A DNA stretch of 64,000 bases from Nitrosopumilaceae archaeon (lineage in GTDB: Archaea; Thermoproteota; Nitrososphaeria; Nitrososphaerales; Nitrosopumilaceae): the NCBI GenBank assembly GCA_965208905.1, contig OZ242365.1:1376001-1440000 (forward strand). The letters run 5' to 3'. The notes under the pieces were generated by a model. It saw only the letters and a program-made list of their open reading frames with translations, made no database searches and was not told where the DNA came from. The position numbers and the translations under genes were made by a program. Below are positions 366 through 57,034 of the stretch, in pieces (positions within the stretch are counted from its first letter, which is position 1; each line of letters starts with the position of its first letter).

Positions 366-1439
366 TGTATAATGCCGTATTGGTGCCCCCATCTTGCAAA
401 AAGATACTCTAATACTTAAAAATCAGACAGACCCATACCATTTGGACCGGATCAAATGTATTACCAACACATAACATCAATGGGTTTTAGCAACCCAAAC
501 ACATGGAAGTTCCCTGTGCATATAGCGTGTGATGCAAAAATTTGCTTCGGAAGGCTCAAGCCAAGGCTCACAGGGGTTCATAACCGACGATACAGCAAGA
601 TATGCTATATAATCCAAGCAGCCCCACAGACTTTATGGAGGGTTAGAACAAAAACCAGATGTAAAGTAGGCCCGCTGAAGTATATTCGCCGGCGCGTTGG
701 AATCGGCGCAGTCGCCCACATGATATGCATGAACACAATTCGTTATTTTGACTCTTCCTGCCTATACACGTAGCATGTCTGGCTGGCCGTTCAACGACTC
801 AGTTATACACAAAGCGCTGTACATGCCATATATCGCCGATACGGCGTGCTTGCGAATCATACGGAATCCGATGTAGTACATGGCATTGTATCACTCTTAA
901 AAATGTGGAGTTTTGGTTTTCGATATGTCCGGTTAAGTATGTTATTTCCGCAATCTTGCACGCGCAGATTATATACGGTATGCGTGTTGGAGTATGTACA
1001 TAACATGGTGACCTCCACAACTCAACAGGGGGAAAGACATCTGGAGTATACTAAAAACCAAACCATCATGGTGTCCGGTTGTACAGGATTTATTGGATCC
1101 CATCTTACAACAAGACTCTCTTCAATGGGATACTCTGTGCGCGGCTTGACAAGAAAGGACATGAATGATCATGACAATATCACATATGTGAAAGCAGATG
1201 TCTTTGATCTTCCAAGTCTGACTAGTGTCATGAAAGGGGTGGATGTGGCATATTACCTACTTCATTCCATGGAGGGTGGCAAAGGTGACTGGCAAGACTT
1301 TGCCAAGAGGGAGAAGGAACAAGCTATGAACTTTCTTCAGGCCGCAAATACATCAAATGTCAAGAGAATCATATATCTTGGATGGAGTGGACCCCATAGA
1401 ATGTTACTGTTTTCGGCATGATTTTACATACATCTTCCA

Positions 1440-2300
1440 TCATTTATTTGTCATCTCCAACTGTTCGGCAAATTCTACTGGTGTCATGTATCCGATAGAG
1501 GAATGAATCCTCTCGGTGTTGTAATCTACAAAGGCCTTTGCAATGATCGTCTCTGCCTCCTGATAGTTCGCAAACTCGTGCGGCCAGATGTATTCCTTTT
1601 TCAGCGTCTTGTGAAATGATTCGACATGTCCGTTCTGCTCCGGCGTATTCTTGTAGATGAATTCATGTTTGCCGATGCCAAGGGCCTGAACCGCATGTCT
1701 AAAGTCGCGGCTCGTATACTGGTTGCCGTTGTCCGTACGCAATCGTAATTGTGAGCAGTCAGGTTTCTCTGCGGCAACCGCGTTGGTGATTGAGGTGATT
1801 GCAATGTCTCGTGTGGCATTGACATCAAACGCGTAGGCGATCCACTTGCGCGTAAAGCAGTCAATTACGTTGAAGCAGTAGCACCAGCCGTCTATACCGC
1901 ACCAGATGTATGTGATGTCCGTCTCCCACAACTGGTGTGGGGCTTTGGGTTTGAAGAGCTTTTGACCCGCTCGAATGATGTCGTTTTTGGTATTTTGTGG
2001 CTGGATGTAGCCCATTTTGCGATATATCCGCTGTATCTGCTTGCGGTTCACCACAATTCCCGTATCGCGCGTTATCTGGGCCGCCATGCGCCGTGTGCCG
2101 TACGTGGGCCTCTTTCTGCTCGTATCTAGCACAGTGCTCAATATATCCGGATTCAATCCCATGTCTCTGGGCTTGGGTTTGTAGTACCATTGGCGCCTGG
2201 ATACGCCCGCATACCCTAGCGACTTGCGCAGGCTCAAATGTTGTTCCTGCATGATTTTTACCGCGTTCAATCGTTGCTTGCCTCCAAGGTTTTTTTTAAA
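1440..2300 (-). CDS. IS3-family OrfB DDE transposase, fused to OrfA by -1 frameshift
   Basis: WETDITY / RTDNGNQY / NGHVESFH DDE triad; slippery TTTAAAAAAAAC (A8 at 2290-2297 on the minus strand) in the OrfA/OrfB overlap. Confidence 0.9.
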   Translation of the reverse strand, partial: FKKNLGGKQRLNAVKIMQEQHLSLRKSLGYAGVSRRQWYYKPKPRDMGLNPDILSTVLDTSRKRPTYGTRRMAAQITRDTGIVVNRKQIQRIYRKMGYIQPQNTKNDIIRAGQKLFKPKAPHQLWETDITYIWCGIDGWCYCFNVIDCFTRKWIAYAFDVNATRDIAITSITNAVAAEKPDCSQLRLRTDNGNQYTSRDFRHAVQALGIGKHEFIYKNTPEQNGHVESFHKTLKKEYIWPHEFANYQEAETIIAKAFVDYNTERIHSSIGYMTPVEFAEQLEMTNK

Positions 2301-2557
2301 GCGTCGTTTGCGATTGTCAGATCCCCTATGATTCGCTTTAGGTCGCCGTTCTCCTTTTTGATGGCCTTTATCGGATCCTTCTTTCCGTGATGGGTCAGTC
2401 CGGACTTGCCTGCGTCCATGAACTTTTGCCGCCAGGCTTGAAACGTTTGGGGATGAACGTTGTGCTTGCGGCACAGCTCGGCCGTGCCAATATTGGTCTT
2501 GATTGATTCCAAAACGATCTGGATCTTTTGGTCTGGAGTAAACTTTGTTCTTACCAT
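2267..2557 (-). CDS. IS3-family OrfA (HTH, leucine zipper)
   Basis: KFTPDQKIQIVLE...AELCRKHNVHP...LKKENGDLKRIIGDL. Confidence 0.9.
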   Translation of the reverse strand: MVRTKFTPDQKIQIVLESIKTNIGTAELCRKHNVHPQTFQAWRQKFMDAGKSGLTHHGKKDPIKAIKKENGDLKRIIGDLTIANDALKKTLEASND

Positions 2558-3632
2558 GGCATCATCCCTCCCATTACGACTTTAAGCTGTATGAACGTGA
2601 GTGTTCTCATTCTAGCGGGGTCCCCACCATGGAGGGCTGGTCAGTAGTGATGGCTCTGAACTCTCACCTCACATGGAGAGTAGAATAAAGGTAGGTCAAA
2701 TTCTTGCATCGGGAAGTATTCCTGTTACAGAACTGCGTGCGTCCATAATAATCGGTGCTCGCGGAGGATCCTTTATGATGTTGAGGTACTTGGTTGAGAG
2801 GCTTAGGTTTATGGTCTGTCCATCGTGGGTGGGCTCATATACCCAACCAATTGCGGTTGATGATGTGGTGGCGTACCTTGTGGGATGCCTTGAGAAGAAG
2901 GAGTCAACTGGTCGAATTTTTGAGATTGGTGGTCCGGACAAGATGACATATGAGCAGCTTATGCGCACGTATTCTACATATTTAGATCGTACATTATTTA
3001 TACTAAATGTACCATTTCTGACTACTCGCCTGTCATCCTTGTGGGTTGATCTGATAACTCCCGTCAAGGCGGCGCTTGCAAGGCCTTTGATAGACAGTCT
3101 AGTACACGACTCGGTTGTCACAGATTCATCGATTGACAAGATAATGCCGATGAAACTAAAGACGGTCACCGAGTCCATTGACATTGCCATTAAAGAAGCA
3201 GACTCCAACTCTGATAGTGCTGTTATTAGACGCAATGCGAAGACCGGGTTTGGACTAAACCAAAAGATTGTACTATTTTCGCTGATTGCCTTGGGGATAT
3301 GCGGTACGTCATATTACTGGTTGGATGATCGGCCTGTTGTGTATGAACCACTTTGGCTGTCTGTCTCTTCTGTATGGTATGTCATTATTGCCTTTGCAGT
3401 AATTATGGTTCGCAACGAGACGAGATTAGGTTATATGGTTGCAGGGGTCCTGGCCTGGGTGACACTGTCGTTTTGGCTGTTTGACAACTTTTATGTTGTG
3501 TTTGACGCATCGATCATCTCTACTGAACCAAACTTTATGATGACTATCCGTAATTTTGTGGGAGTTGTTGTTGCCGCCACGGCAATTATTGCTTCCCATA
3601 ACCTATTCCACAAGAGCGTTTATACGTGATCA

Positions 3633-5002
3633 GGAGCTGTCAAATCTTAGAGGGATATGACAGCCTGCCGTACGGCAGATGTTGGCGAGTTGCCATCCAG
3701 AGGAGATTCCATGAGATGTTCCTTGTTGGTCAGGCTTTGATGCCCGTCCTTTGGACAGCCTGTACCGGCCATCACGTCACCAACGACACTGGGTATAGTG
3801 AGTGTCGCAAGATGTATCTTCCCTCTCAAGACCATTCCGGCCTTGGCTTGCAGTGAATAAACGGCCTGCGCGCGTTTACTCCACTACACTGTATAAAAAG
3901 TGAATAATATGTTGAACGCGGCATTGACATCCGCGTGCTGTACAACGCCGCACTCACGGCACCTGAACCGGCTGCCGTCGCGCCACGTGTTTGTGCTGCC
4001 GTATACACAGCACTGCTGTGATGTGTATTTCGGGTCAATCTCGGCATACTCGGTGTTGTGTTGCAAAGCCTGTTGTGCCAACAAAGCCCGCGCCTCACCG
4101 CACTTGAACTGCCGCATTAGACGGTTCTTGTTCTTCTGGCCTGGGCCCTTGGTCGTCATTGTACGGAGGTTCATGCCCTCCATGATTATTTTGTCGCATT
4201 GCGCAAATAGTTTTTTGGCAAACTTGCGCAGCTTGTCTGTTTGCCGGTTTCCCATCTTGCGGTATATGCTTTGCAGCTGCGCGTGCAGTGTCCACCACTT
4301 GTGGGAGTGAAGTTTGCAATGAGACATCTTCTTTTGAATACGCGCGATGTTCCGTATAGTGTCCTTCTCGCGCAGTGTAGTCATCTCTATTCTGCCGTCC
4401 GATTTTGCCACCACAAGCGTTTGTTTGCCGCCCATGTCAATTCCCGCATGTACGCCGGTACATACACGGTCCGGAACGTGTTCACGTATAGTAACATGCA
4501 GCTCAAACTGTCTTTCCCTGTCCGCATTATTCGTCACATCCACAATTTTGTACGACTGCAATGTGTCGGGCAGGCGTCCTTTCTGGAGTTTGAAAGGTTT
4601 GTCGCACTTTGGGCAATACACTGTATTACCCTTGGACTTTTTGCCAAGCGGCATATTACTATACAGTGGGTAAACCTTCTTGCCATACTTTACGTGAGTG
4701 CACCCCCCCATCTTGTGGCCTTCCTTGATGGCTCCGTGAACCCAAGACTGTGGTATGCCCTGGCATATGGTGGCTATTTTGTTGGTGTCAAACACCGACA
4801 GCCCGGCCCGGCGCGCCTTTATCCCCGCATTGAGCCACACATGACTCTCCGAGTACATGGAGTCAAAATATCTGGTCAGCCTGGCAGATGTCTTTAAACG
4901 GTATTGGACAGTCTTTATGACGTACTTTCCACCATTATACTTCATGTGTGGTTTATAACTTGGTGCTATTTAAGCGGTATCCCCCTAAGATTTGACAGTA
5001 CC
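3633..5002 (-). mobile_element. TIR-bounded non-autonomous element carrying only tnpB, copy 1 (1370 bp, 8-bp TSD CGTGATCA)
   Basis: Ends GGAGCTGTCAAATCTTAGAGGGATA / GGTACTGTCAAATCTTAGGGGGATA (rc); CGTGATCA at 3625-3632 and 5003-5010. Confidence 0.92.
3647..4945 (-). CDS. tnpB: TnpB RNA-guided endonuclease, copy 1 (internal TAG at 3884-3886 where copy 2 has CAG)
   Basis: RuvC motifs GIDMG / IIMEGMNL / ADVNAAFNI, YTSQQC..FRCRECG zinc finger; the frame continues past the stop in register with copy 2. Confidence 0.9.
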
Positions 5003-5215
5003 CGTGATCAATATAATTTAGTAGGGCATTATATGTTTGGGTAGGTATACGTGGTATGCGCATATGTTACCCGTATGTGACTCTACCATAACAAATCTCC
5101 CAAATACTTTACGTTGTAATTGTAGAGGTGATGCTGTTTGACATTAGCTCTATTGTATACCTACTGCGTCTGTATGCATTCAAGGATGTTACCAACTACA
5201 ATATCAATAGTACGA

Positions 5216-5527
5216 TTATGCTTTCTGAACTAGGTATATGGTCTGCTTACCTCTACTGAATATCGATATGTGTACTTTGTCGGCGCCCTGATCCAACCAC
5301 GGAGTGTATGCTTTTTTGTCTTGTGTAAGCAGATCACAATCGTTATCTAGACAGTATGATGCTATTACGTGGTCCGAACTGTCGGATGGCAGATTAGGTG
5401 ATTCTCCGACATATTTGACATCCGTGTATGCTTGTCTGATCTGCTCCTCGTTGTCCGTTCCCCACCCTTTTGTCTGAGCGTCTACAAGTACACTGGTGCC
5501 CATAATGCTTGGTTTGATTCCAAACAT
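5216..5527 (-). CDS. Small PIN-like protein (DUF5615/Mut7-C-like); start probably MGTSVLVD
   Basis: VLVD...SDHVIASYC...LLTQD pattern. Confidence 0.5.
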   Translation of the reverse strand: MFGIKPSIMGTSVLVDAQTKGWGTDNEEQIRQAYTDVKYVGESPNLPSDSSDHVIASYCLDNDCDLLTQDKKAYTPWLDQGADKVHISIFSRGKQTIYLVQKA

Positions 5528-27332: not shown

Positions 27333-27644
27333 CGAAGTTGGTCACTACATACCACGTAGATCTAAGCGGGGTAATCGTTAGGTTTTGTGAACCCGGGGGT
27401 GACGAGTGAGGGCGTGAGATTTTGGTAATGACCAATACAAGACTGACATACACTCTTACCGGAATCCCACCATGCTTGGGGTGATTAATGTTGATCGCTC
27501 ATCTATCTAATGTTGGGGGTGGCAATTACGCCCATAGGGCGGCGGAGTTGGCGTTCAGTGTAGAAAAAGCATGAACCGGCCAGATGACACGCGCCTGCAG
27601 GACGGATTCTGCGGAAAATAATTACGGCGCGAAAAGCATCTTGG

Positions 27645-28649
27645 TCAGGCCCGCCTCTCGGGATATTGGTCAAGGATGGCGGCCAGCGCAACCACGAACC
27701 TGCCATTGATGCCATAGTGCCTGTGGTTGTGGACAAACTGGAAAGACTTGACGTACCGTTCCAGATGCCATTTGCTTACGCCGCGGTGTTTTTTCAGCCA
27801 CCATATACAGCAGGCCTATCCGGCACTCGCAGTTATTGGTATGAATATCGTTGTGCTCGCCTGATGCGTATTCTCCTTCGTTGTGGTTGATGACCAGGTG
27901 GCCATATCCCATCTCTCCAAGGCTCTTGTAGGCGGGATGCTCGTCGGTGATCACCGTTGAGCCCGGTTCGAACCTCCCGGCCACCATTTCGGCCAGCGTT
28001 TTGCCGTCGCCACGGGGAACCTCGAAGATGGCCACATCCGGTTCGCCTTCTGCGGCCCGCTGATGGTGGATGGTGACCATCGGCGTGTTCTTCTCGAAGG
28101 TGCCCCTGCCCGGACCGCGGGGCAGCTGGCGGCGGCTGGGGACAGTCCGGTTCTCGCCGTTGCTGCCCAATGACACCCCCTTGGAGCCGGCCCTGGTGTA
28201 TCCCTCATCGGCCTCACCCGTCCCGGACAGCTTGCCCTCCGGCAGCTCGCCCACCTTCCGCATGATGTCGCGGTACATCTGGTAGACGGTCCCGTAGGCG
28301 TTGCCTATCGAAGTTGCAATATAGTTTATCGATATCCCGTTGGGCGGCCCGCACAGGAACATCCAGACCGCCAGCATCCAGTCTCCCATCCGGACGTGCC
28401 GGTAGTGAAGAATAGTCCCGGTCTTGTCGTTGAAGGTCCGGCAACAGCCCTTGCACGTGTACCTCCGGATGTGTCCCTGGTATCGGCAGTACCGGACGAT
28501 ATCAACCCCGCCGCAACGTGGGTAGAACAGGCCGTTGGCCCACCGGACCGTCCTGAACAACTCGCTGTAGCCACCATATCGGCAAACAATGCCAGCAGGA
28601 GCAACAGGGGACCGGATTCTTTTTGTTTTTGCGTTTTGCCACACGCCAT
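27645..28649 (-). pseudogene. IS1595-family transposase, frameshifted
   Basis: Zn ribbon (xPRCG...CKGC), EADEGY, TDEHPAY, NHNEGEY, HTNNCE; a frameshift at about 27804-27807 restores WWLKKHRGVSKWHLERYV; probable second shift near the N-terminus. Confidence 0.85.
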
Positions 28650-28728
28650 GGAGGTATGGAGGGATCTACCTCTATAGATCTTTTTCGATTACACCTACTT
28701 GGTGCGGGGCTTCACTTACCCCCAACAC

Positions 28729-29576
28729 TCAACAGATGAGCGAATATACATGATAGGGCTTGTCGTCAGGTATGAGGGCGTAGGATATGGCAGAACCCTT
28801 CAAAAATGCTCCCGTGCAATGATGATCGTAAGTTTGTATAGTAGAAAATCCTTCGTTCTGAGCGCTTGCCATGCCAGTAAAGCCAAGCATTACCAGCATG
28901 CTCACGGCGAATAATGCATACAGAATTTTTGATTGGATTATAAAATTCAAGAATGTATCACCCGCATACATTATAGTTTACACGTATTTGATTATTGTTG
29001 CTAGGAAATTTGCGAATCTGTTATCGGTTACAGAGTCGCAACACTCACAGTTAAATCCAAAGCAGACGATGGTCAGTTACCGTGACTCAATGACAAATTT
29101 TGGCATGGTTACCGTGGTATTTCCTACGGTGTTGGGCGTGATAAACAGGGGGATACGGCGTTGTTCCATCCCGTAGCGTGCATCGCATGGTGGTGAATGA
29201 CGGTATACGAGTTGTTCCGTCCAGAATCTAAGGTCTGGAAATTCTATGTTTGCTACCGTGCGGTTATAACCAGTGACGGTGGGAAATATCACTTTATCAT
29301 ATCAGTATCCGTAGCAACTACTTGGATGGCTACCGTCTCGGCTCCAACCTAGACGGCAATACGTGACGGCAAGGGCGAGAACTGAGTGGGAGAGTTTGAT
29401 TCTCCCACGCAGACTCTAAAAGATCCTTGGTCGTATCCGCCTTTGCTGTCCGTAACCGTTATTTCCATTTCATCTTGTCCATCCGCGATAGGCGTCAATG
29501 TAATGGTGTCTTCAGACATGCTGACAGATACGAATTCAAAGCTGTTACGCACAATCAACTTCAAAAAATGAAACAA
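28729..29576 (-). pseudogene. Fragments of secreted/surface protein genes (signal-peptide fragment; Ig/cadherin-like fragment)
   Basis: MLVMLGFTGMASAQ signal-like piece; DTITLTPIADGQDEMEITVTDSKGG beta-rich motif; short broken ORFs. Confidence 0.4.
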
Positions 29577-29834: not shown

Positions 29835-31204
29835 GGAGTTGTCAAATCTTAGAGGGATATGACAGCCTGCCGTACGGCAGATGTTGGCGAGTTGCCATCC
29901 AGAGGAGATTCCATGAGATGTTCCTTGTTGGTCAGGCTTTGATGCCCGTCCTTTGGACAGCCTGTACCGGCCATCACGTCACCAACGACACTGGGTATTG
30001 TGAGTGTCGCGAGATGTATCTTCCCTCTCAAGACCATTCCGGCCTTGTTGTACAGTGCGTAAACGGCCTGCGCCCGCTTGCTCCACTGTATGGTACGAAA
30101 AGTGAAAAGGATGTTGAATGCCGCGTTTACATCAGCGTGCATCAGAACGCCGCACTCATGGCACCTGAACCGGCTGCCGTCGCGCCACGTGTTTGTTCTG
30201 CCGCATACACAGCACTGCTGCGATGTGTATTTCGGGTCAATCTCGGCATATTCGGTGTTGTGCTTGAGTGACTGCTGCGCCATGTGGGACCGCGCCTCAC
30301 CGCACTTGGACTGCCGCATCAGACGGTTCTTGTTCTTCTGGCCTGGGCCCTTGGTCGTCATGGTACGGAGGTTCATCCCCTCCATGATGATTTTGTCGCA
30401 TTGCGCGAACAGTTTTTTGGCGAACTTGCGCAGCTTGTCTGTTTGCCGGTTTCCCATCTTGCGGTATATGCTTTGCAGCTGCGCGTGCAGTGTACACCAC
30501 TTGTGGGAGTGAAGTTTGCAATGAGACATCTTCTTTTGAATACGCGCGATGTTTCGTATAGTGTCCTTCTCGCGCAACATCAGCATCTCAATTCTGCCGT
30601 CCGATTTTGCCACCACAAGCGTGTGCTTGCCGCCCATGTCAATTCCCGCATGTACGCCGGTACATACACGGTCCGGGACATGTTCACGTATAGTAACATG
30701 CAGCTCAAACTGTCTTTCCCTGTCCGCATTATTCGTCACATCCACAATTTTGTACGACTGTGATGTGTCGGGCAGGCGTCCTTTCTGGAGTTTGAAGGGC
30801 GCGCCACACTTTGGGAAATACACTGTATTACCCTTGGACTTTTTGCCAAGCGGCATATTACTATACAGTGGGTAAACCTTCTTGCCATACTTTACGTGAG
30901 TGCACCCCTCCATCTTGTGGCCTTCCTTGATGGCTCCGTGAACCCAAGACTGTGGTATGCCCTGGCATATGGTGGCTATTTTGTTGGTGTCAAACACCGA
31001 CAGACCGGCACGGCGCGCCTTTATCCCCGCATTGAGCCACACATGACTCTCCGAATACATAGAGTCAAAGTATCTGGTCAGCTTGGCGGATGTCTTTAAA
31101 CGGTATTGGACAGTCTTTATAATGTACTTTCAATTATCATACTTCATATGTAGTTTACAACTCGGTGCTATTTAAGCGGTATCCCCCTAAGATTTGACAG
31201 TGTC
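29835..31204 (-). mobile_element. TIR-bounded tnpB-only element, copy 2 (1370 bp)
   Basis: Same length and TIRs as copy 1; flanks CTTG--CA (29829-29834) and CTTGTACA (31205-31212) fit an eroded 8-bp TSD. Confidence 0.9.
29849..31147 (-). CDS. tnpB: TnpB, copy 2 (TGA at codon 6, 31130-31132; remainder open)
   Basis: RuvC D/E/D intact, CCVC...CHEC zinc finger intact; MKYDN*KYIIKTVQYRL vs MKYNGGKYVIKTVQYRL in copy 1. Confidence 0.9.
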
Positions 31205-33011: not shown

Positions 33012-33767
33012 ATGAGAGACAAAATTTGCCTAGTGACTGGAGCTTCAAGTGATATAGGTGAAGGTATAGTCCAACGCTTCGTTGAGGAGGGTGCCATTGT
33101 TATACTCTTGTCTAGAAGTCTGTCCGCCATGGAAGATGTGAGAAAACGTGTAGGATCCATGGATCGTACAGTGTCAATGGTGTGTGATATAACCAACACC
33201 TCTCAAGTACTACATGCAGTGGATCGTATAGTTGCCGAATATGGCCGAATCGATGTTCTTGTAAACAATGCAGGAATAATAACATCCTCCACACACTTTC
33301 ATCGGATGCCCCAGTCTGATATAGATAATCTGATAAACATCAACCTGCAAGGCATGTTCAGCGTGACCCGGGCAGTGTTGCGAAGCATGACGGATATAAA
33401 TCAAGGCAGCATTGTAAATATAGGCTCCATATCCTCTGAGCGAGCCATACCAAAGGTACACCTGGCAGTATACTCATCAACAAAGGCAGCACTATCGATG
33501 TTCACAAAATCCATAGCAGTAGAGTATGCTCGACGTAACATACGGTGTAACTGCGTCAACCCTGGCATAATAAACTCGGGAATGATAAAGCCCTATCTAG
33601 ATGATCCTGAAGCAAGAAAAGTTTTAGAAGCACGTCTTCCCATGGGACGCATAGGCGAGCCACGAGATGTGGCCAACGCAGTACTCTTCTTTGCATCTGA
33701 TGAGTCTTCGTGGGTGACTGGTACCACACTGAATGTTGATGGTGGCAGATCTGCATCCGAGGGTTAG
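33012..33767 (+). CDS. Short-chain dehydrogenase/reductase (FabG-like)
   Basis: TGASSDIG, NNAG, YSSTK, VDGG. Confidence 0.92.
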   Translation: MRDKICLVTGASSDIGEGIVQRFVEEGAIVILLSRSLSAMEDVRKRVGSMDRTVSMVCDITNTSQVLHAVDRIVAEYGRIDVLVNNAGIITSSTHFHRMPQSDIDNLININLQGMFSVTRAVLRSMTDINQGSIVNIGSISSERAIPKVHLAVYSSTKAALSMFTKSIAVEYARRNIRCNCVNPGIINSGMIKPYLDDPEARKVLEARLPMGRIGEPRDVANAVLFFASDESSWVTGTTLNVDGGRSASEG

Positions 33768-33900
33768 TCTGTCTGCCTTTTGTTCCATCGAATATATGAA
33801 AATGCCGCAACCAGGGTAATCCCCGCAGTTATGCCGCCCCATATGATCAACCGTATCGCATCAACATCTGCCATCAGATGATAGAATACAAGACATCAAT

Positions 33901-34212
33901 TTAGCCATAATCCAAGTATCTTTTGTATCGTTTCTCAATCTCTCTGTTATATCCAGATGTAATATCTTCTACCTCTTGCTTCATCCTGTGCCGTATGTAT
34001 TTTTTGATTGGTGTAAACTCATCAGAGTCCGGAAATGTCTCCAATGCGTTGCAAGCAGCCTGAAAGTGTTCTACAACCTTGGCCCGGAACTCTTCTTTGG
34101 AAGGCTCTCTATTTCCGCCTAATCGGAACCACACAGTAGCAAAACTTGCTCCTGCTATGTGCGGTAGCTGGTCCATAGCCCGTACTATCTCGAATCTTTC
34201 ATCATCCCTCAA
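33901..34212 (-). CDS. Hypothetical protein
   Basis: 103-aa ORF overlapping the hemB stop. Confidence 0.75.
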   Translation of the reverse strand: MRDDERFEIVRAMDQLPHIAGASFATVWFRLGGNREPSKEEFRAKVVEHFQAACNALETFPDSDEFTPIKKYIRHRMKQEVEDITSGYNREIEKRYKRYLDYG

Positions 34213-35177
34213 CGCAACAACCTGGACACTTCACGAGCAAAGTATGTTACAATGATATCTGCACCCGCCCTCTTTATGGACCCGAGCATCTCTAGCATGA
34301 CTGCATCCTTATTTATCAGTCCTTGCGCATCGGCCGCATGTACTAGAGCATACTCGCCAGACACATTATACGCAGCTACGGGTACATCAAAGCGCCTACG
34401 GGTCTCTGCCACCAAGTCTAGGTATGGAATTGCGGGTTTTATCATGATTATATCGGCACCCTCGGTGATATCTGCTGCCACCTCCATCATGGCCTGACGA
34501 GAGTTTGCGTACGACATCTGATATCCACTACGATCCCCACATTTAGGGGCGCAACTGGCCGCATCTCTGAACGGAGTGTATAGTGATGAGTGATGTTTGG
34601 CAGCATGAGCCAATATCGCCACGTCCGTATACCCTTCATAATCTAGGCGCGTTCTTATGGCAGCAACTTGACCATCCATCATTGCCGATGGCGCCACTAT
34701 ATCCACACCTACCTTGGCATAACTAGCAGCAATCTCTGCCAGATATCGTATTGTCGCATCATTGTCTACTGCACCTTTACGATATATCCCACAGTGACCT
34801 GTATCTGTATACTGACACATGCAGACATCTGCCATTATCACCATGTCAGGAGTTGATCTTCGTGTCTCTCGTATGGCGTTTTGTACCACACCATCTTTGT
34901 CATAAGCCGAACTACCAAGACTATCTTTTGTCTTTGGTACTCCAAACAACATTACTGCAGATATTCCATCGGCCTGTATCTTTTTCATCTCCTCCTGTAC
35001 CATACTAGGCGGTATTCTCTGTATGCCAGGCATGGACTGTATTGTTTGAGGCTCAGTTAATCCCTCCCCGACAAATATGGGATACACTAAATCATCCAGA
35101 CTTAGATGACTCTCTTGTACTAGTCTGCGCATACCATCGGACTTTCGCAGTCGGCGCAGACGTTGCTTTGGAAACAT
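34209..35177 (-). CDS. hemB: Porphobilinogen synthase
   Basis: RLRRLR, DVCMCQYTDTGHCG, APSAMMDG, MIKPA, AYNVSGEY. Confidence 0.97.
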   Translation of the reverse strand: MFPKQRLRRLRKSDGMRRLVQESHLSLDDLVYPIFVGEGLTEPQTIQSMPGIQRIPPSMVQEEMKKIQADGISAVMLFGVPKTKDSLGSSAYDKDGVVQNAIRETRRSTPDMVIMADVCMCQYTDTGHCGIYRKGAVDNDATIRYLAEIAASYAKVGVDIVAPSAMMDGQVAAIRTRLDYEGYTDVAILAHAAKHHSSLYTPFRDAASCAPKCGDRSGYQMSYANSRQAMMEVAADITEGADIIMIKPAIPYLDLVAETRRRFDVPVAAYNVSGEYALVHAADAQGLINKDAVMLEMLGSIKRAGADIIVTYFAREVSRLLR

Positions 35178-43134: not shown

Positions 43135-45504
43135 CTAGTCGGACGTGTAATAGCCCGACCCGAAGACCAACCCGTCGTGCATTATCAACCAGGTGCGCTT
43201 GTCTTCCGTCTCGCCGGTGACCGGGTTTGTGAGCTGGTAGTTCACCCACATGCCGGTTCCCCTCCTTATCTCGCTGAGTATGTCGTCCACCGGCAAGTCC
43301 GAGCTGATGGCATCCCAGTCGGAGGTAGACCCCATAAGGTCGGGGTTTACGTTCCGCGCCTGGGTTATCCCGGTCGCCGGGTCCGCCACAAAGACGTAGG
43401 TGGGGATGACCTGCTCGGGAATGGTGTTGAGGTCTGCAAAGGCAGCATCTCTACCCTTGTTGTTGTACTCGAGGATTTGGCCGTAGGCGGCTGCCTGGAC
43501 CTGTGAATCCAGCAGGTAGTAGCCCGACCCGAAGACTAGTCCGTCCCGCAGCTGCAGGTAGGTGCGCTTGAGCTGCTCTATACCAGTAGAGGGGTTGTGG
43601 AAGGTGTAGGTCACCCAGACACTCCCATTGGCCTCCAAGTCGGCCAGAACGTCCTTGACGGACCTGCCCGAGGTATCCAGGATGGTCTCGGCTTTGCCGA
43701 CCCGGTCCGGCACCACGCCGTCGGCCAGCCTGGTCCAGGATGTTGCGTTAATGACGAACGGGTAGAGGTCGTCGGTTATGATGGGTTCATCGGGGGTGAT
43801 TATGTCTATCCAAGCGTTGTTCTCCTTGTTGGACTCGTAGGTGAATATGGCATAGTCTACTGCTGATCTGGTATCTGCATCGGAGAGGGTGTAGGTGGAT
43901 GCAAAGAGGTAGTCGTCGTATAAGGTATTGGTGCCTCGCTTGATCTGATCCGCACCGGTAAAGGGGTTTACGAAGGAGTATAGTGACCATACTGTACCCC
44001 CGCTTTCCGCGGCCACGCTCCATATATCCGCGTTGGATCTTGCTATCTGAAAGCTCGGAAGCGGTCCGATCAGGTGCGGAAGCGTGCCATGTGCGACTAT
44101 ATGCGTAAAGTTTCTGACACCGGGATATATGTCCAGTCTGTTGAGCTTCCCGGAGGTTATCACCTCAAAGCCGCTCTCCGGGTCGTTCCTGTAGGTGTAG
44201 ATGGCCTCATCTACCACCGACTGTATCCTAGAGTCGGGCAGTGAGTAGCCGGCGCCGAATATGTAGCCGTCATACAGGGACACGTAGGTGTAGGTGAGCT
44301 GGTCGGTCAGGGTGGCGGGGTTCTGCGCCATGTACCACACCCAAGCGCCCTCCGCCGAACGTAACTCCTCCATGATGCGCTCCAGTGACCTGTCGGCCGC
44401 GGCAAGGTGCTGGTCGGTGCTTCCCACCAGGTCCGGCAGCAGGCCGTGCGCCACTACTTCCAGTGTAGTCTCATCCAGCACGAATGAGGACTGCAGGGCC
44501 AGGGGGTCGGCTACCTCCGGCGTTATGATATCAAACGCTTCCTCGCCGTTGGCCTTGTACAGGATTATGGCCTCAGCTACCAGTGACTGCATTCTGGAGT
44601 CCTGGATGTAGTAGCCGGAGCTGAAGATGTACCCGTCGTACAGGTACAGCCAGGAGCGCTTGAGCTGCTTTGTTTCGGTGGCGGGGTTTGTAAAGACATA
44701 CTCGACCCAGGTGCCCCCGTCCCTCTCCAAGTCGGCCATGATATCCTCTACCGGCCTGTCGCCGGTATTCAGTATCGAGTATGGCACATGTCCTAGACGG
44801 TCCGGGATGGCTCCGTGCGCCACCGTCTTCAGGGTGGTGGAATTGAATATGAACGGATATAACTCCGTGACGAGCAGCGTCTCCTCAGGCGTGATTATCT
44901 CAAAGGCCTCCTGCCCCTTTGACTCGTACAGCCGCACCGCATCCTCCACCACGTACTTTGCCTCGGACTCGGACAGGTAGTGGCCGGAGCCGAATATGTA
45001 ACCGTCATGCAGGTACAGCCAGGAGCGCTTTGGCTGTATAATCCCGTTGGCCGGGTTTGTGGCCATGTACTCGACCCAGGTGCCCCCGTCCCTCTCCAGG
45101 TTGGCAAGTATGATATCGACAGGGCTGTCTGCCCGGGTTAGGGTGTCGGGTATCACGCCCGCAAGGTCTGGGAACGCTCCGTGTGCCACCGTCTCAAGGG
45201 TCTCCACGTCCAAGACGAACGAGTATATGGTGTCAGTGATGAGCGCCTCCTCGGGTGTAATCATCTCGAACGCGGTGGGGCCCATCTCCCAGTACTGCAT
45301 CAGAGCCCTTACAACGGCAGCCTGAACCCTGGAATCTATGCTGTTCGCGTCATACCTCGCATATTCAGGAAGCGTTGCCGCCATTTTATCATAGGACATC
45401 GCATCGGACTGTCCCGCCATCATTGCATCGTCCGCCGCAAGTCCGGAAGGAAACAGGTACCCGGCCAGTGCGATTGCCGCCATCACGGCAATCAATGCGG
45501 GCAT
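43135..45504 (-). CDS. Secreted protein with six tandem Cache-like domains
   Basis: Signal peptide MPALIAVMAAIALAG; six repeats of AV..Y...G..AF...Y.F..D....VAHG...G.WV.Y...NP.T....K......DG.IFGSGYY. Confidence 0.85.
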   Translation of the reverse strand: MPALIAVMAAIALAGYLFPSGLAADDAMMAGQSDAMSYDKMAATLPEYARYDANSIDSRVQAAVVRALMQYWEMGPTAFEMITPEEALITDTIYSFVLDVETLETVAHGAFPDLAGVIPDTLTRADSPVDIILANLERDGGTWVEYMATNPANGIIQPKRSWLYLHDGYIFGSGHYLSESEAKYVVEDAVRLYESKGQEAFEIITPEETLLVTELYPFIFNSTTLKTVAHGAIPDRLGHVPYSILNTGDRPVEDIMADLERDGGTWVEYVFTNPATETKQLKRSWLYLYDGYIFSSGYYIQDSRMQSLVAEAIILYKANGEEAFDIITPEVADPLALQSSFVLDETTLEVVAHGLLPDLVGSTDQHLAAADRSLERIMEELRSAEGAWVWYMAQNPATLTDQLTYTYVSLYDGYIFGAGYSLPDSRIQSVVDEAIYTYRNDPESGFEVITSGKLNRLDIYPGVRNFTHIVAHGTLPHLIGPLPSFQIARSNADIWSVAAESGGTVWSLYSFVNPFTGADQIKRGTNTLYDDYLFASTYTLSDADTRSAVDYAIFTYESNKENNAWIDIITPDEPIITDDLYPFVINATSWTRLADGVVPDRVGKAETILDTSGRSVKDVLADLEANGSVWVTYTFHNPSTGIEQLKRTYLQLRDGLVFGSGYYLLDSQVQAAAYGQILEYNNKGRDAAFADLNTIPEQVIPTYVFVADPATGITQARNVNPDLMGSTSDWDAISSDLPVDDILSEIRRGTGMWVNYQLTNPVTGETEDKRTWLIMHDGLVFGSGYYTSD

Positions 45505-45668: not shown

Positions 45669-48326
45669 GTGAATGTAATTTGGATGGCATTGTTGTTATC
45701 TTGGGCCGCCTTTGTATCGGCATCATATGCAGATGTGTCGTATCATACAAGCGGATTTCATGCGTTGGATGGCCCAACCGGCATAGATACAATCACCATA
45801 CAAAACCACACATATGCCATAGTGAGTAGTTCTGTTGATGGGGCAGTCCAGATACTAAATATAACCAACCCCTATACACCACAGCCTGTATACAGTATAT
45901 CTGGCCAATACCTAATTGATGCGCAGGATGTTGTCGCAGTAAACGTGGGAGATGAAGCATACATCATGATAGCTGGTGCCAAGACCGGTTCAATACAGAT
46001 TATAGATATTACCAATCCACAAGCACCCCTAATCATAGGAGACATTGCAGGATTTGAGACGTCAGATGACATGGGAGAGTTAGATCACATAGATGGCAGT
46101 CGTGCCGTTGATGACACATCTGGATTTGAGGCGCTGGGGGGTGTTAACAGTCTCGAACTTTTGTCACTGCCAGGCAACTATACATATGTGGTAGCTTCGG
46201 GCCCCGCAGATGATGCAATTCAGATAATGGATGTAACATTTTATGATTATCCGGGCCACATCTTTGACTACAATTGCATGTATGCACCCCGACCAGTAGC
46301 CAGCATATTTGATGGAGAGTATGATACAATATTAGATGGTGCATGGAGTACGCTTCCCATCAAAAAGTGGGACCGGGAGTACATACTTGCAGTGGGATCA
46401 AGCAGCTACATATCGGTTTTAGACGTAAGCCACATAACCACACCACATACGGACTTGCGCCCTTGTGATGACCCGCGCAGGAGCGGAACGTATCAGGATG
46501 GCAGTACTGCAGATTCATCTTCAGTACCACCATACACAGGGAGTTCATCCTTGTTTGGACCCCAGCCAATAGTTAGCATAACCAATAGTACAGCAGGGTT
46601 TGAGTCTTTATACAGCATAAACAAGATGGTTGCCATTACACATACAGATGATAACACAATACCAACGCGAGTCTACGAGGATATAGTACAAAGGACAGAG
46701 GGTACAAATGATACAACCTCCCTTAAACGAGGACCAACCCACATAATAGCGATTAGTGATAACTCTGTTCAAGTTATCAGAGTTAACAGCACATATGCAC
46801 ATTACCTAAACTCCACACATGATACGATACGACTGCCTCCCAAGACAGACATACCGGACATCACACTGACATCCGTGCATACAATATACGATGATACCGA
46901 CGGGTTTGAGGCGCTGGGCGGTGCTCGCGACATCAAACTTGCGTATATGAACAATCATACTATTGGCGTTATAGCAGGATTTGATGATGATGCACTACAG
47001 ATAATAGACTTTACCATACCCGAAGACCCTAAGCCCATATCCAGCATATTTGATGGCATAAATGGGTTTGAGGCCTTGGGTGGCGTATATGGTATCGAAA
47101 TTACAGATATTGGTGATAATACATACGTCATAGCCGCAAGTCATCTTGATGATGGTGTGCAGATAATAGACATTACCAATCCGTACAAGCCATTACCGGT
47201 ATCCGGCGTGTTTGATCACAGTTACTTTGACTCTTTGGGAGGGGCCAACCATGTCACCATATCGGAGATATCAGATAGATTATACGCCATGGTAACTGCC
47301 TCTTCAGACAACTCCCTTCAAATAATTGACTTTACCTCCCCTGAGTATCCTGTATCGGCTGCCAGCATACGCGATGATGCTGATGGGTTTGAGGCCTTGG
47401 GTGGCGCGCAGGACTTTGTATCAGCTACTATTAAAAATCGCACATATGGAGCCGTTGTGGGCCATTCAGACAATGCAGTCCAGATCATAGACATCACAGT
47501 ACCAAACAATCCAAAGCCCATATCTGCAATATTCGATGATACTGATGGGTTTGAGGCCCTGGGTGGCGCCAACGGCATAGATGCAGTTACAATACATAGG
47601 CACACATATCTTGTAGTGGCCAGCAAGTCAGACAATGCAGTACAGGTAGTCAACATGACCGACCCCGCACATCCCAGGCCTGTATATGCAATATTTGATG
47701 ATACCGATGGGTTTGAGGCCCTGGGTGGCGCCAGCAAGGTACAATGCCACAACACATACTGTCTAGTAACTGCAAACACAGATGATGCCGTCCAGATACT
47801 AAACATTACACAGGATGGTTCCCCGCAGCCGCTTGCAGCCATATTTGATGGCCAAGATGGCTTTAAATCTCTAAAAGATGCCGGCGAGATACAAATTACA
47901 ACCATAAACAGTCAGACATTGGCAGTTGTTACGGCCAGGGGGGATGATGGTTTACAGATTATAGACATAACAAACCCCATATCTCCAAAAGTAGTCTCCA
48001 ACCTGTTCCGTTACACAGAGGGATTTGACTCGCTGAGCGGTATTCGAAATGTAAGCATATACAATGACACATATGCCATTACAGCCAACGGACTAGGCGG
48101 TACTGTATCCATAATAGACATGACATCTCCAGATTCGCCCAAAGTCATATCATCGATAAATTATCATATGTATGGTCTAGGTGACCTGTACGGCGTAACC
48201 GGCATAGACATATACAACAACACCTATGCCGTATTTTCCAGCAAAGACAAGAGCAGTGTCTTAATATTTGATATTGCAGAGCCGTCTTCACCCCGACTGG
48301 TATCTGTGATTAATGATCAAAAATAA
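45669..48326 (+). CDS. Secreted LVIVD-type beta-propeller repeat protein
   Basis: Signal peptide; repeated DxxDGFEALGGA...YA.V....D.AVQIIDITNP..P.PV. Confidence 0.88.
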   Translation: MNVIWMALLLSWAAFVSASYADVSYHTSGFHALDGPTGIDTITIQNHTYAIVSSSVDGAVQILNITNPYTPQPVYSISGQYLIDAQDVVAVNVGDEAYIMIAGAKTGSIQIIDITNPQAPLIIGDIAGFETSDDMGELDHIDGSRAVDDTSGFEALGGVNSLELLSLPGNYTYVVASGPADDAIQIMDVTFYDYPGHIFDYNCMYAPRPVASIFDGEYDTILDGAWSTLPIKKWDREYILAVGSSSYISVLDVSHITTPHTDLRPCDDPRRSGTYQDGSTADSSSVPPYTGSSSLFGPQPIVSITNSTAGFESLYSINKMVAITHTDDNTIPTRVYEDIVQRTEGTNDTTSLKRGPTHIIAISDNSVQVIRVNSTYAHYLNSTHDTIRLPPKTDIPDITLTSVHTIYDDTDGFEALGGARDIKLAYMNNHTIGVIAGFDDDALQIIDFTIPEDPKPISSIFDGINGFEALGGVYGIEITDIGDNTYVIAASHLDDGVQIIDITNPYKPLPVSGVFDHSYFDSLGGANHVTISEISDRLYAMVTASSDNSLQIIDFTSPEYPVSAASIRDDADGFEALGGAQDFVSATIKNRTYGAVVGHSDNAVQIIDITVPNNPKPISAIFDDTDGFEALGGANGIDAVTIHRHTYLVVASKSDNAVQVVNMTDPAHPRPVYAIFDDTDGFEALGGASKVQCHNTYCLVTANTDDAVQILNITQDGSPQPLAAIFDGQDGFKSLKDAGEIQITTINSQTLAVVTARGDDGLQIIDITNPISPKVVSNLFRYTEGFDSLSGIRNVSIYNDTYAITANGLGGTVSIIDMTSPDSPKVISSINYHMYGLGDLYGVTGIDIYNNTYAVFSSKDKSSVLIFDIAEPSSPRLVSVINDQK

Positions 48327-52939: not shown

Positions 52940-52956
52940 CAAATAGGCAGGTTCAC

Positions 52957-54255
52957 ATGAATCCAAAACATAAAACAAAATTCAAGAAGGTGAAATGGCT
53001 CTTTGGCAGGGAGATTGAGATTCCAGAAGGATGGAAATGGGAAAAACTAGAAAATAATTCTACATTAAAGGGTAGAATTGGTTGGCAAGGATTAACAACT
53101 GCCGAATACCTAAAACATGGTAAGTATTATCTCGTAACAGGAACTGATTTTAAAAACGGTTCCATTTATTGGGAAAATTGTGTTTATGTAAATAAAGACC
53201 GTTACTCTCAAGATTCTAACATTCAACTAAAGAAAAATGATGTCTTAGTTACAAAAGATGGAACGATAGGAAAAGTTGCCTTTGTTTATATTCTTTCAAA
53301 ACCTGCAACACTAAACAGCGGAGTTTTTGTCATTCGTCCAATTAACAAAACGTATTTTCCTTTATTCCTATACTATGTTTTACGCTCAGATTATTTTGAG
53401 AAGTTTCTAGATAGACTCAAAGCAGGATCAACCATTAATCATCTATATCAAAAAGATTTTGTTAATTTTAAATTTCCGATCCCATCGAGATCAGAACAAA
53501 CCCGTATTGCATCAATCCTTGGCGGAGTTGATGCATGTATAGAGGCCACACAGAAAATAATTGAAAAATATGAGAGATTAAAGAAAGGCCTAATGCAGCA
53601 TCTTTTAAGTCACGGGATTAATCATACCAAATTCAAAAAAGTGAAATGGTATTATAACAAAGAAATAAAAATTCCATATAAGTGGGAGTGGAGTGAATTG
53701 GGTAACGAAGGGAGCCTTTCTTCAGGTGCCACACCTAAACGCGATCACCCTAAATATTACAATGGTAATATTTTATGGGTTTCAAGTGGAGAATTAAATT
53801 ACAATTTAATTACAACGACTAACGAATTAATAACTGTCCTCGGTCTACAAAAAACTAATTTAAAAATTCACTCAGAAGGTACTTTTCTTTTTGCAATTAC
53901 TGGATTAGAAGCAAGAGGAACGAGAGGGCGGTGCGCAATCTTGGGAAGACCTGCCACTATTAACCAATCCTGTATGGCTTTTTATAATTCTTCATTAGAT
54001 GTTAAATTTTTATTTTACTATTTTTTAGCATTTGGAGAAAAAATTATTTTTGCAACAGCACAAGGAACAAAACAACAAAGTTTAAATTTAGAAATATCTA
54101 AGAAAATCAAAATTCCTATTCCGTCTTTCTCAGAACAACAAAAGATTGCATCAATCCTGTCAGGAGTTGATGCAATTCAAAATCTGTTTTGGCCTATAAA
54201 AATATGTGTAGGATTAGTAATGTTTTTAATACTTTTAAGAGTAGTAAAACTATGA
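52957..54255 (+). CDS. hsdS: Type I R-M specificity subunit hsdS-A (two TRDs; conserved C-terminal helix missing after the site at 54147-54174)
   Basis: IPEGW, P..SEQ.RIASIL..VD, LKKGLMQHLL; homology ends abruptly after SGVDA. Confidence 0.92.
   Translation: MNPKHKTKFKKVKWLFGREIEIPEGWKWEKLENNSTLKGRIGWQGLTTAEYLKHGKYYLVTGTDFKNGSIYWENCVYVNKDRYSQDSNIQLKKNDVLVTKDGTIGKVAFVYILSKPATLNSGVFVIRPINKTYFPLFLYYVLRSDYFEKFLDRLKAGSTINHLYQKDFVNFKFPIPSRSEQTRIASILGGVDACIEATQKIIEKYERLKKGLMQHLLSHGINHTKFKKVKWYYNKEIKIPYKWEWSELGNEGSLSSGATPKRDHPKYYNGNILWVSSGELNYNLITTTNELITVLGLQKTNLKIHSEGTFLFAITGLEARGTRGRCAILGRPATINQSCMAFYNSSLDVKFLFYYFLAFGEKIIFATAQGTKQQSLNLEISKKIKIPIPSFSEQQKIASILSGVDAIQNLFWPIKICVGLVMFLILLRVVKL
52993..53029 (+). 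repeat. Inverted repeat A (partner 56942-56978), 35/37 identical
   Basis: AAATGGCTCTTTGG(CAG/AAA)GGAGATTGAGATTCCAGAAG. Confidence 0.85.
53508..53535 (+). repeat. Putative recombination site B (partner 56460-56487, inverted)
   Basis: TGCATCAATCC-TTGGC-GGAGTTGATGCA; 34/35 identity over 53506-53540 vs 56455-56489. Confidence 0.9.
54147..54174 (+). repeat. Putative recombination site C (partner 55800-55827, inverted)
   Basis: TGCATCAATCC-TGTCA-GGAGTTGATGCA; 32/33 identity over 54142-54174 vs 55800-55832. Confidence 0.9.
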
Positions 54256-54464
54256 GTACAATCGTACAGAAAAAGACGTATGCAGTGATAATTGCAAAAG
54301 ATCTTGAAGAAGGAGGATTTGTCGGTACGTGTGATGAACTGCATGCAGTTTCAGAAGGAGATACATTTGGGGAGATCGTAGAAAATATGAAAGAAGCAAT
54401 GGAGTTAGCGGCCGAAGAATCTGGAAATCCAACTAACTTCAATATGTTAGTAGTAGAATGCTAA
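54252..54464 (+). CDS. hicB: HicB-family antitoxin (short form)
   Basis: YAVIIAKDLEEGGFVGTCDELHAVSEGDTFGEIVENMKEAMEL. Confidence 0.85.
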   Translation: MSTIVQKKTYAVIIAKDLEEGGFVGTCDELHAVSEGDTFGEIVENMKEAMELAAEESGNPTNFNMLVVEC

Positions 54465-54700
54465 TGTCAAAGTTTCCAAGTGTGTCAGGTAATCAAATGA
54501 CAAAATATCTTCAAAGTAAGGGGTTCGCCATAACAAAGAGAAGAGGAAGTCATGTAACATTAAGATACAAAAATATTTTTACAGTTATACCTTTGGGTAG
54601 TAAAAGGCTGAAGATCAGAACTCAGTTTTCCATACTACTGTATGCTGGTATTAGTAAAGAAGAATTTGTTAATGACTATGACAGTGGGCTGGTAGCATAA
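54458..54700 (+). CDS. hicA: HicA-family mRNA interferase toxin
   Basis: LQSKGFAITKRRGSHV...VIP...ILLYAGISKEEF. Confidence 0.88.
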   Translation: MLMSKFPSVSGNQMTKYLQSKGFAITKRRGSHVTLRYKNIFTVIPLGSKRLKIRTQFSILLYAGISKEEFVNDYDSGLVA

Positions 54701-54757
54701 AGTAGCTGATAACTCTCACTTGCAAGTAGAAATAGAAACTTTTCGATTAATCTATAC

Positions 54758-55678
54758 ATGTCCAAACACACAAATCAAAGAAGTATGATGCTGTTTGAAG
54801 AATCAATAAAATCAAAATACACCAAGCAGAATTACATATCACATCTAAACCAATTCAAAAAGTTTAGCGGTATATCTAATGTAGATCATTGGCTGAATAT
54901 TCCATCAAATGAACTACAAACTGTACTAGAAGATTATGTCATATACTTAAAGCATACTACGAGCCCAAACTCTATCCCATCAAAGCTTAGGGGCATAAGA
55001 CATTTTTTTGTGATGAACCGAATTAAGCTTGACTGGGACATAATTTGTAAGATGTTCCCTCCTAAACAAAAAACTTCTACTTTGAGAGCATACACCACAG
55101 GAGAGGTACAAAAGATGCTTTTGCATACCAAGAACTCAAGAGATAAAGCTCTAATTCACTTCCTGGCATCAACCGGAGCAAGAATCGGAGTGTTTGATCA
55201 CCCGTTGTTAATAAAACATAGACAAAAAATGCCATCAAATTGCACTGCGTTTCTGTTTTATGCAGGAACTGTTGAAGAATATTGGTCATTTCTCACACCG
55301 CAGGCAACTAAGATACTTGATGTCTATCACAACATACGTAAACGCGACGGTGAAACTTTTAAGCCAGACACTCCCATATTTGTAACATCAAAACATAATT
55401 CAACTCAGCTTAGTTGGAGTGGTGCACGCTCTGTAATATATAGAAATATTTCTAAAACCACAATAAGACTCAAGCATGGTAATCGTTTTAACGTTCAAGC
55501 AGACCATGGATTTAGAAAAAGATTTAACACCATACTTAAGATGGATAATTCTGTAAACCATAATATAGCAGAAAAATTAATGGGGCATAAAAATGGTCTA
55601 GATGGGGTATATTTTACTCCGTCGCTGGAAGAATTATTTACAGAATTTAAAAAGGTTATAAATCGATTGCAGATCTAA
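54758..55678 (+). CDS. Tyrosine recombinase (probable hsdS invertase)
   Basis: Catalytic residues present: STGAR, HGFRKR, LMGH, VYF. Confidence 0.92.
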   Translation: MSKHTNQRSMMLFEESIKSKYTKQNYISHLNQFKKFSGISNVDHWLNIPSNELQTVLEDYVIYLKHTTSPNSIPSKLRGIRHFFVMNRIKLDWDIICKMFPPKQKTSTLRAYTTGEVQKMLLHTKNSRDKALIHFLASTGARIGVFDHPLLIKHRQKMPSNCTAFLFYAGTVEEYWSFLTPQATKILDVYHNIRKRDGETFKPDTPIFVTSKHNSTQLSWSGARSVIYRNISKTTIRLKHGNRFNVQADHGFRKRFNTILKMDNSVNHNIAEKLMGHKNGLDGVYFTPSLEELFTEFKKVINRLQI

Positions 55679-55700
55679 CTGTGTCGATGAAAATGTGTAA

Positions 55701-57014: not shown

Positions 57015-57034
57015 ATGGCCCCCACTACTACAAT

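Follow-up and report, generated by a model that had tools for sequence, protein, structure and literature searches.

The window analysed here, a stretch of 64,000 nucleotides, covers bases 1376001-1440000 of the genome of a marine ammonia-oxidising Nitrosopumilaceae archaeon. It carries a tnpB gene enclosed in an element with terminal inverted repeats (TIRs). The genome (G000) is a single contig of 2,214,775 bp, 99.6% complete, and was compared with two sister genomes, G005 and G008. The element, designated c1, occupies window positions 3633-5002 (1,370 bp) between two copies of CGTGATCA. The left copy of this 8-bp target-site duplication (TSD), at 3625-3632, overlaps the TGA stop codon of the host gene at 2673-3629, and the right copy is at 5003-5010. 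The TIR at the tnpB 3′ end, GGAGCTGTCAAATCTTAGAGGGATA (3633-3657), is of the IS6 type (GGnnCTGT...); that at the tnpB 5′ end (4978-5002) reads GGTACTGTCAAATCTTAGGGGGATA in reverse complement. All internal features lie on the minus strand: a TATA box, TTAAATA, at 4967-4973; the tnpB gene at 3884-4945, of 353 amino acids (aa) and with RuvC I, II and III motifs; a predicted omegaRNA scaffold at 3664-3918, overlapping the tnpB 3′ end; and, at 3636-3664, a predicted RNA hairpin (GCUGUCA...UGACAGC) that involves the TIR.

In G005 the site is empty. The sequences that flank c1 (96% identity on the left, 95% on the right) abut there and overlap by exactly one CGTGATCA. As the flanks are contiguous with a single copy of the repeat, a chance TSD (~1.5e-5 per given 8-mer pair) is ruled out. 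Thus, c1 is a genuine TIR-to-TIR insertion which duplicated 8 bp at a site that is empty in the sister species. Public DNA contigs break inside the repeat and are without the empty-site joint; the one joint reported in public reads (3853 to 4089, one contig) probably derives from a paralogous copy. The gene on whose stop codon c1 is exactly placed is an NAD-dependent epimerase/NmrA-like gene. It is itself divided into two parts (846-1421 and 2673-3629) by an IS3-family element at window 1370-2632, which consists of an HTH_Tnp_1 open reading frame (ORF) and an rve ORF and has ~13 near-identical copies in the genome.

The c1 protein scored above the cut-off for the Pfam models OrfB_IS605 and Cas12f1-like_TNB. 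With the NCBIfam model guided_TnpB, the protein of c2, a copy outside the window at genome 768095-769464, reached 113.6 bits against a cut-off of 100. The RuvC motifs GIDMGG, IMEGMN and HADVNAA align with their counterparts in a solved 408-aa TnpB-type nuclease, and we take the catalytic residues (D-E-D) to lie within these motifs. Judged by its sequence, the predicted protein has the RuvC-like domain with a D-E-D triad and the TNB/zinc-ribbon domain by which a TnpB is recognised. The initial annotation had described tnpB as having an intact RuvC D-E-D triad. The motifs are indeed there, but the c1 frame ends at 353 aa compared with 430-440 aa in its relatives, and the zinc-finger CxxC reads CCVY where c2 has CCVC, one Cys being changed to Tyr. 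The additional C-terminal stretch of frame in the intact copies overlaps with sequence that is conserved at the RNA level. The TATA box precedes the ATG (4945-4943) by ~22-28 nt, and this spacing implies a near-leaderless tnpB transcript. The motif TATTTAAGC of the TATA region is kept in nine of the ten copies that retain the tnpB 5′ end (c5 is the exception; c11 is truncated there). Its role as a promoter is presumed from the archaeal consensus.

The same annotation had allowed for nothing in the element besides a TATA-like box, tnpB and the TIRs; the element holds a predicted omegaRNA of ~250 nt as well. When 18 copies were aligned (12 of this genome, five of G005 and one of G008), 58 base pairs were predicted, 16 of them with compensatory double changes, and the conserved RNA region is read as the omegaRNA scaffold. 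Scanning 3400-5200 against Rfam produced no match at E values up to 1. The c1 scaffold terminates with a covarying hairpin, CUGCCGUACGGCAG, immediately inward of the TIR. Directly after this last conserved hairpin, a separate one is predicted in which the TIR is paired with its complement in the neighbouring internal sequence. Such pairing was predicted in four end types, the hairpins closing 3-5 nt before the element boundary (z-scores -3.5, -2.3, -0.6 and -2.0); in c1 the predicted energy is -21.2 kcal/mol (z -3.5) and the hairpin closes 3 nt before the element end. With a hairpin closing so near the boundary, the duplicated target and the flank beyond it would occupy the guide position. The TIR hairpin is therefore proposed as an adaptor that sets a flank-derived guide beside the scaffold. 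In the TnpB-type nuclease system Fanzor1, too, the guide RNA is reportedly encoded at the 3′ end beside the TIR.

The second copy in the window, c3 (29835-31204, minus strand), is also 1,370 bp long and 93% identical to c1, and its tnpB contains an in-frame TGA. Its limits match the points, window 29834 and 31205, at which homology to G005 stops. No TSD was found at c3, the best match being 5/8, and the break points in G005 enclose 2.7 kb of other DNA. The site fits a deletion or recombination beside the element rather than a simple insertion. Of what the initial annotation had reported here, the two copies of 1,370 bp and the perfect TSD of c1 were confirmed by the comparison with G005, and the 25-bp TIRs are present, albeit imperfect (22/25 match). 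Copy c2 is 94% identical, has a perfect TSD, GTTGTCAA, and a tnpB frame open over 440 aa.

A search of the whole genome, of the kind the initial annotation had pointed to, returned ~12 full or nearly full relatives of 72-94% identity, in addition to scattered fragments of the omegaRNA end. Each of the ~12 bears tnpB and the conserved covarying scaffold. Their TIRs are specific to subfamilies and often longer (up to ~50 nt), of the type GG(A/G)(A/G)CTG(T/G)... or T-GGGCTG.... One end is missing in c5, c8 and c11. Among the nine two-ended copies of the 12, the TSD is a perfect 8 bp in four (c1, c2, c6 and c12) and matches at 7/8 in three (c7, c9 and c10).

Which transposase could act on these ends was examined in the complete genome. 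TnpA of the Y1 (PF01797) and serine-recombinase (PF00239) types gave 0 matches each, while positive controls matched; G005 and G008 gave no Y1 TnpA match. Thirteen IS6-like DDE transposase paralogs were found by tblastn, and 13 loci scored above the Pfam DDE_Tnp_IS240 cut-off. These proteins combine a DDE_Tnp_IS240 domain with SWIM zinc fingers in open frames of 356-501 aa. A simple inverted-repeat search near the 13 genes gave few clean TIRs, and the ends were defined by motif-guided searches. The transposase-bearing relatives are 3.6-3.7 kb or larger with cargo, and the c1 element is without a transposase gene. Among the cargo of the larger IS6-like transposons are genes of methyltransferase type, an identification based on sequence motifs only, and the IS6-like cargo transposons produce 8-bp TSDs.

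Several of these transposons share their ends with tnpB cassettes. The TIR of Tn3602 (3,602 bp, two copies), GGAACTGGTGCATCTTGGTGACC, is identical to the c8 right end at 25/25 bases. An element with a 461-aa transposase starts with the TIR type that c4, c5 and c9 have, GAACTGTCCCAAATATAGCGTGTGCCCCAAAATAGCGCGTAG; the match to its left end extends over ~40 nt, with 19/25 in the TIR comparison. For the TIR of c1, the best likeness among transposase-bearing elements is to the end of E157, a 3,688-bp transposon at genome 157876-161563 which starts GGAACTGTCAAAAAC and has a perfect 8-bp TSD, GTCAATAC; 11 of the first 12 bases agree. A transposase-bearing element with matching ends, of the kind sought in the initial annotation, exists for c8 and, over ~40 nt, for c4/c9, but c1-c3 have just this partial counterpart. 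Another end type (genome 2129151) matches the c1-c3 TIR at 21/25, and a 714-bp element with c6/c10-type ends has a 99-aa ORF in place of tnpB and a TSD of 7/8. The IS26 end GGCACTGTTGCAAA resembles GGCACTGTCAAATC of c2. Matching ends across tnpB elements, elements with other cargo and transposase-bearing elements make these ends a shared currency of the DDE transposon family, so tnpB appears to be one of several cargoes behind them.

The two copies of Tn3602 lie in direct orientation at genome 1337692-1341293 and 1851328-1854929, 514 kb apart. Described as restriction-modification-carrying, the transposon contains the transposase, a methyltransferase-like ORF and a 281-aa ORF. The pair shares one split 8-bp TSD, GTCCGTTG, found to the left of copy a and to the right of copy b, and in G005 the two outer flanks adjoin each other within a homologous gene of 65-70% identity. 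This arrangement seems to fit that left by IS6-type cointegrate formation, here for a relative of the tnpB cassette, and it could be the mark of a replicon fusion or a large rearrangement. Ends of another type, TGGGCTGGTAACTTATCCGCGC, occur at genome 140415 (+), 157817-157841 (-) and 1116873 (+). Long repeats of 8.3 and 9.4 kb are delimited by these ends, which adjoin an IS6-like gene at 156696-157754; a cargo transposon of very large size, belonging to the IS6-like family, may thus occupy the region 140415-157841.

Five further tnpB-only repeat families, each of ~4 to 16 copies, are present in the genome with TIRs and short direct target repeats. The target repeats are of 8 bp, except in J1485 (representative at genome 63117-64601), where they are of 3 bp. 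A1490 (~15 copies; representative 33487-34975) and L1420 (352058-353478) have IS1595-type ends, GGGAATTATATAC, and perfect 8-bp TSDs; the same sequence opens the elements with an IS1595-family transposase in this genome, G005 and G008. B1630 (60249-61891) and C1530 (28031-29559) have ends GGTTCCTCCCGCAA, which are common to a 1,536-bp element at 926302-927837 with a decayed IS6-like DDE gene and are also found on derivatives of 189-585 bp, the size of miniature transposable elements with inverted repeats (MITEs). TIRs and short direct target repeats delimit all six of the repeat families examined, and four of the six share their end type with resident DDE transposons, whether IS6-like, decayed IS6-like or IS1595. 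In all, 72 TNB-domain loci were counted in the genome.

The homologous TnpB/omegaRNA units of G005, which belong to the same clade (65-75% protein identity), end in GGGAATTAT..., which is of the IS1595 type. One G005 copy with these ends has both of them and a TSD of 7/8. The same clade is therefore found behind IS6-like and IS1595 ends, that is, the tnpB-omegaRNA unit has been placed behind two DDE families. The swap junction falls directly after the last scaffold hairpin. From these comparisons the unit would thus be a swappable passenger of DDE transposons. Two further tnpB copies of G005, L033 and L035 (G005:C1 ~10412 and ~199799), are 97% identical, and only their omegaRNA side carries an end of the IS1595 type. 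Their other side is an identical TIR-less boundary, and there is no TSD; with a one-sided end and no TSD, they must have been moved or copied in a different way.

The sibling families also bear on the origin of the guide. In 11/12 copies of B1630, a family with symmetric TIRs, (T/A)TA is found on the tnpB-5′ side, immediately 5′ of the 8-bp TSD, and no comparable motif was found on the other side of the element despite the symmetry. At the same position beside the TSD, C1530 has (A)TTG and A1490 has G. An orientation-specific motif beside a symmetric-ended DDE element looks like the imprint of a transposon-adjacent motif (TAM), and its presence in sibling families supports a guide read from the flank.

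These results suggest, with a probability of about 0.78, that c1 is a non-autonomous DDE-type shell with IS6-like TIRs and an 8-bp TSD, which has the tnpB-omegaRNA unit as its sole cargo and is moved in trans. The earlier proposal that a DDE transposase of the IS1595, IS6 or IS1 kind moves the cassette in trans is supported by the sharing of IS6-like ends, which makes such transposition probable. The resident IS6-like transposase(s) would bind the cassette TIRs and move the cassette, probably by the replicative cointegrate pathway typical of IS6, with which the split TSD of Tn3602 is consistent. In the mechanism envisaged, tnpB would be transcribed from the TATA box just inside one TIR. The scaffold would overlap the 3′ end of the gene, the last TIR would fold as a hairpin, and the transcript would run on into the duplicated target and the flank. 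The resulting guide would match the unoccupied site, so that TnpB could cut empty alleles and the element could be copied by homologous repair.

Several observations weigh against this explanation. Two of the nine two-ended copies (c3 and c4) are without a TSD, and two G005 copies have a TIR-less right end. Both c1 and c3 are decaying, and the three closest copies are 6-7% apart; the family need not be active today. The exact c1-c3 TIR occurs on no transposase-bearing element of this genome, and the likeness to E157 stops after 12 bases. The transposases themselves, of 378-461 aa, are ~2x the size of the classical IS6 enzyme, and with the best model, the NCBIfam IS6 equivalog, they reached 102.8 bits against a cut-off of 125. 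The sole public RNA run (contigs) covers just 5107-5277 and thus gives no view of expression or of the predicted omegaRNA 3′ end. At the eight sites of the cassette's own family there was no clear TAM-like motif, RT preceding the TSD at 5/8.

Some of these points could be attributed to a family that has ceased to move, its copies being immobile relics whose transposase for c1-type ends has been lost. The missing exact TIR twin, the damage in c1 and c3 and the 6-7% divergence of the copies would all agree with such a loss. Yet c2 has an open frame of 440 aa, c1 was inserted after the split from G005 (flanks 95-96% identical) and 13 related transposase genes have open frames. This explanation is therefore unlikely, though it is the strongest of those considered besides trans mobilisation by an IS6-like enzyme. 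Slightly less probable is a different role for the nuclease, in which the 16-20 nt that directly follow the final conserved hairpin of the scaffold, inside the TIR, serve as the guide, and TnpB cleaves at the ends of the element that carries it and so contributes to excision or mobility. It draws on the conserved scaffold, which ends 25 to ~85 nt before the boundary and leaves a subfamily-specific remainder, and on c4, c9 and c6, where the inverted repeat reaches inward to or past the last scaffold hairpin. The variable segment, however, is a hairpin of its own that ends 3-5 nt from the boundary in four end types, which suits a flank guide. Orientation-specific motifs beside the TSD in sibling families are what a TAM with a flank guide would produce, and elements with the same ends move without tnpB.

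The identity of the mobilising enzyme was considered in the same way. Four intact IS1595 transposase genes are present in the genome, GGGAATTAT IS1595-type ends flank the homologous TnpB clade in G005, and A1490 and L1420 are flanked here by IS1595-type ends with 8-bp TSDs. It could thus be the resident IS1595-family transposases, not the IS6-like ones, that move the cassette. We consider this improbable, a shade more so than a guide within the TIR, as the ends of c1-c12 (GGAGCTGTCAAATC; GGnnCTG(T/G) type) are unlike GGGAATTAT and match those of IS6-like transposons. Finally, an ordinary IS200/IS605 (IS1341-group) tnpB-only element could be moved by a Y1 TnpA, the repeats being incidental subterminal hairpins. 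The protein passes the NCBIfam TnpB subfamily model, and tnpB-only elements are usually filed in IS200/IS605, for example by Bao and Jurka (2013; PMC3627910). This possibility has almost no chance of being correct in view of the lack of a Y1 transposase match in this complete genome and in the two sister genomes, the exact 8-bp duplication confirmed by an empty site, and ends that are true non-palindromic inverted repeats common to DDE transposons.

Other features of the window were recorded in passing. Its genes for TFB, aEF-2 and ArgRS are of archaeal character, and the names of close protein homologues point to sponge-associated Nitrosopumilaceae of the Cenarchaeum type. A degenerate IS1595-like element (H family) at window ~27493-28800 (genome 1403493-1404800) has a frameshifted transposase, with five fragments in the genome; it was rejected as a partner, its ends, TCGCTCATCTGTTGAGTGTTGGGGG, being unrelated to the tnpB elements. 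Diverged tandem-like direct repeats (~153 nt and 51-109 nt, 63-78% identity) at 43147-45129 and 46110-47747 are probably repeat domains of a large protein gene. An AT-rich stretch at 52954-57017 contains four nested inverted-repeat pairs (42-148 nt, 72-90% complementary) and direct repeats at 53470 and 54109, a pattern which resembles paired invertible specificity-gene segments.

The association of TnpB with DDE transposons is not new in principle, and this qualifies the parallel to Fanzor capture drawn in the initial annotation. Altae-Tran et al. (2023, PNAS, PMC10691335) describe six DDE-associated TnpB branches, DDE-1 to DDE-6, that have inverted terminal repeats, together with solo TnpBs whose ends are those of transposase-bearing elements and which are probably moved in trans. 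The cassette is like those branches in having tnpB within a TIR-bounded element, with the 3′ end within ~250 bp of the transposon end. Its family is also like the solo TnpBs, as described there, in sharing ends with transposase-bearing elements (25/25 for c8; ~40 nt for c4/c9; 11 of just the first 12 bases for c1-c3). The partner named in the main text of that paper is IS630, and a 2026 review (PMC13565253) lists ISL2, IS630 and IS1031; the partners here are an IS6-like SWIM-zinc-finger DDE transposase and IS1595, with 8-bp TSDs.

The likeness to IS6/IS26 extends to the DDE_Tnp_IS240 domain, 8-bp direct target repeats, short ends starting GG and, for the relative Tn3602, direct copies with a split TSD of the kind that cointegrate formation would leave. 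The IS6 review of Varani et al. (2021, PMC7986276) gives 8-bp repeats, lengths of 700-890 bp, two MITEs, one member with a passenger gene, and a classical IS6 with one transposase of 213-254 aa. Unlike that description, the transposases here are larger and have SWIM zinc fingers, the TIRs extend to ~50 nt, and the elements range from 0.7 to 3.7 kb and more, with cargo; the score with the NCBIfam IS6 equivalog also falls short of its cut-off. For tnpB-only elements, PMC3627910 and PMC13565253 state that they have neither TIRs nor TSDs. The cassette resembles the IS1341-group elements in having tnpB and the omegaRNA as its sole content and in matching the same Pfam/NCBIfam models. It differs from that group, which has asymmetric hairpin ends, no TIR or TSD and a dependence on Y1, by its TIRs, its 8-bp TSDs and a genome without Y1. 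As for Fanzor1 (Bao and Jurka, 2013, PMC3627910), a TnpB-type nuclease travels as a passenger in a DDE transposon with TIRs and TSDs. The host here is prokaryotic, unlike that of Fanzor1, and the TnpB is of ordinary size (~435 aa); the likeness is drawn with no claim of direct ancestry. No description of tnpB inside IS6 or IS1595 elements was found in the main texts of this literature or among the titles and abstracts listed by literature searches; the supplements of PMC10691335 might list such loci. The principle is already published, but three features appear to be new: the partnership with IS6-like and IS1595 transposons, the hairpin that the TIR would form in the omegaRNA, and the motifs resembling a TAM next to the TSDs. 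That a genome with 72 TNB-domain loci is completely devoid of TnpA is part of what sets this case apart.

A wider proposal, in which TnpB of this lineage has moved wholly out of IS200/IS605 and IS607 shells, takes its guides from the flank by way of TIR hairpins and combines RNA-guided homing with TSD-making, probably replicative, DDE transposition, is put forward tentatively, at slightly less than even odds. The accepted role of TnpB is to reinstate a transposon that Y1 or serine TnpA has excised without a scar, and the 2026 review (PMC13565253) argues that TnpB is for this reason rarely found with DDE transposons in prokaryotes. In this genome, by contrast, dozens of tnpB-omegaRNA units would have no carriers other than DDE transposons of two families, and closely related genomes offer the transposase partners, the empty sites, the relatives with swapped ends and the TAM-like imprints alike. 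The acquisition of a guide across the TIR and TSD, the homing payoff for a copy-in transposon and the start of Fanzor-like captures are testable in this setting, which also offers compact archaeal TnpB/omegaRNA pairs with boundaries set precisely by TIRs. If true, the wider proposal would provide a living prokaryotic model of the step behind Fanzor1-type associations and a direct test of what a non-excising transposon gains from TnpB.

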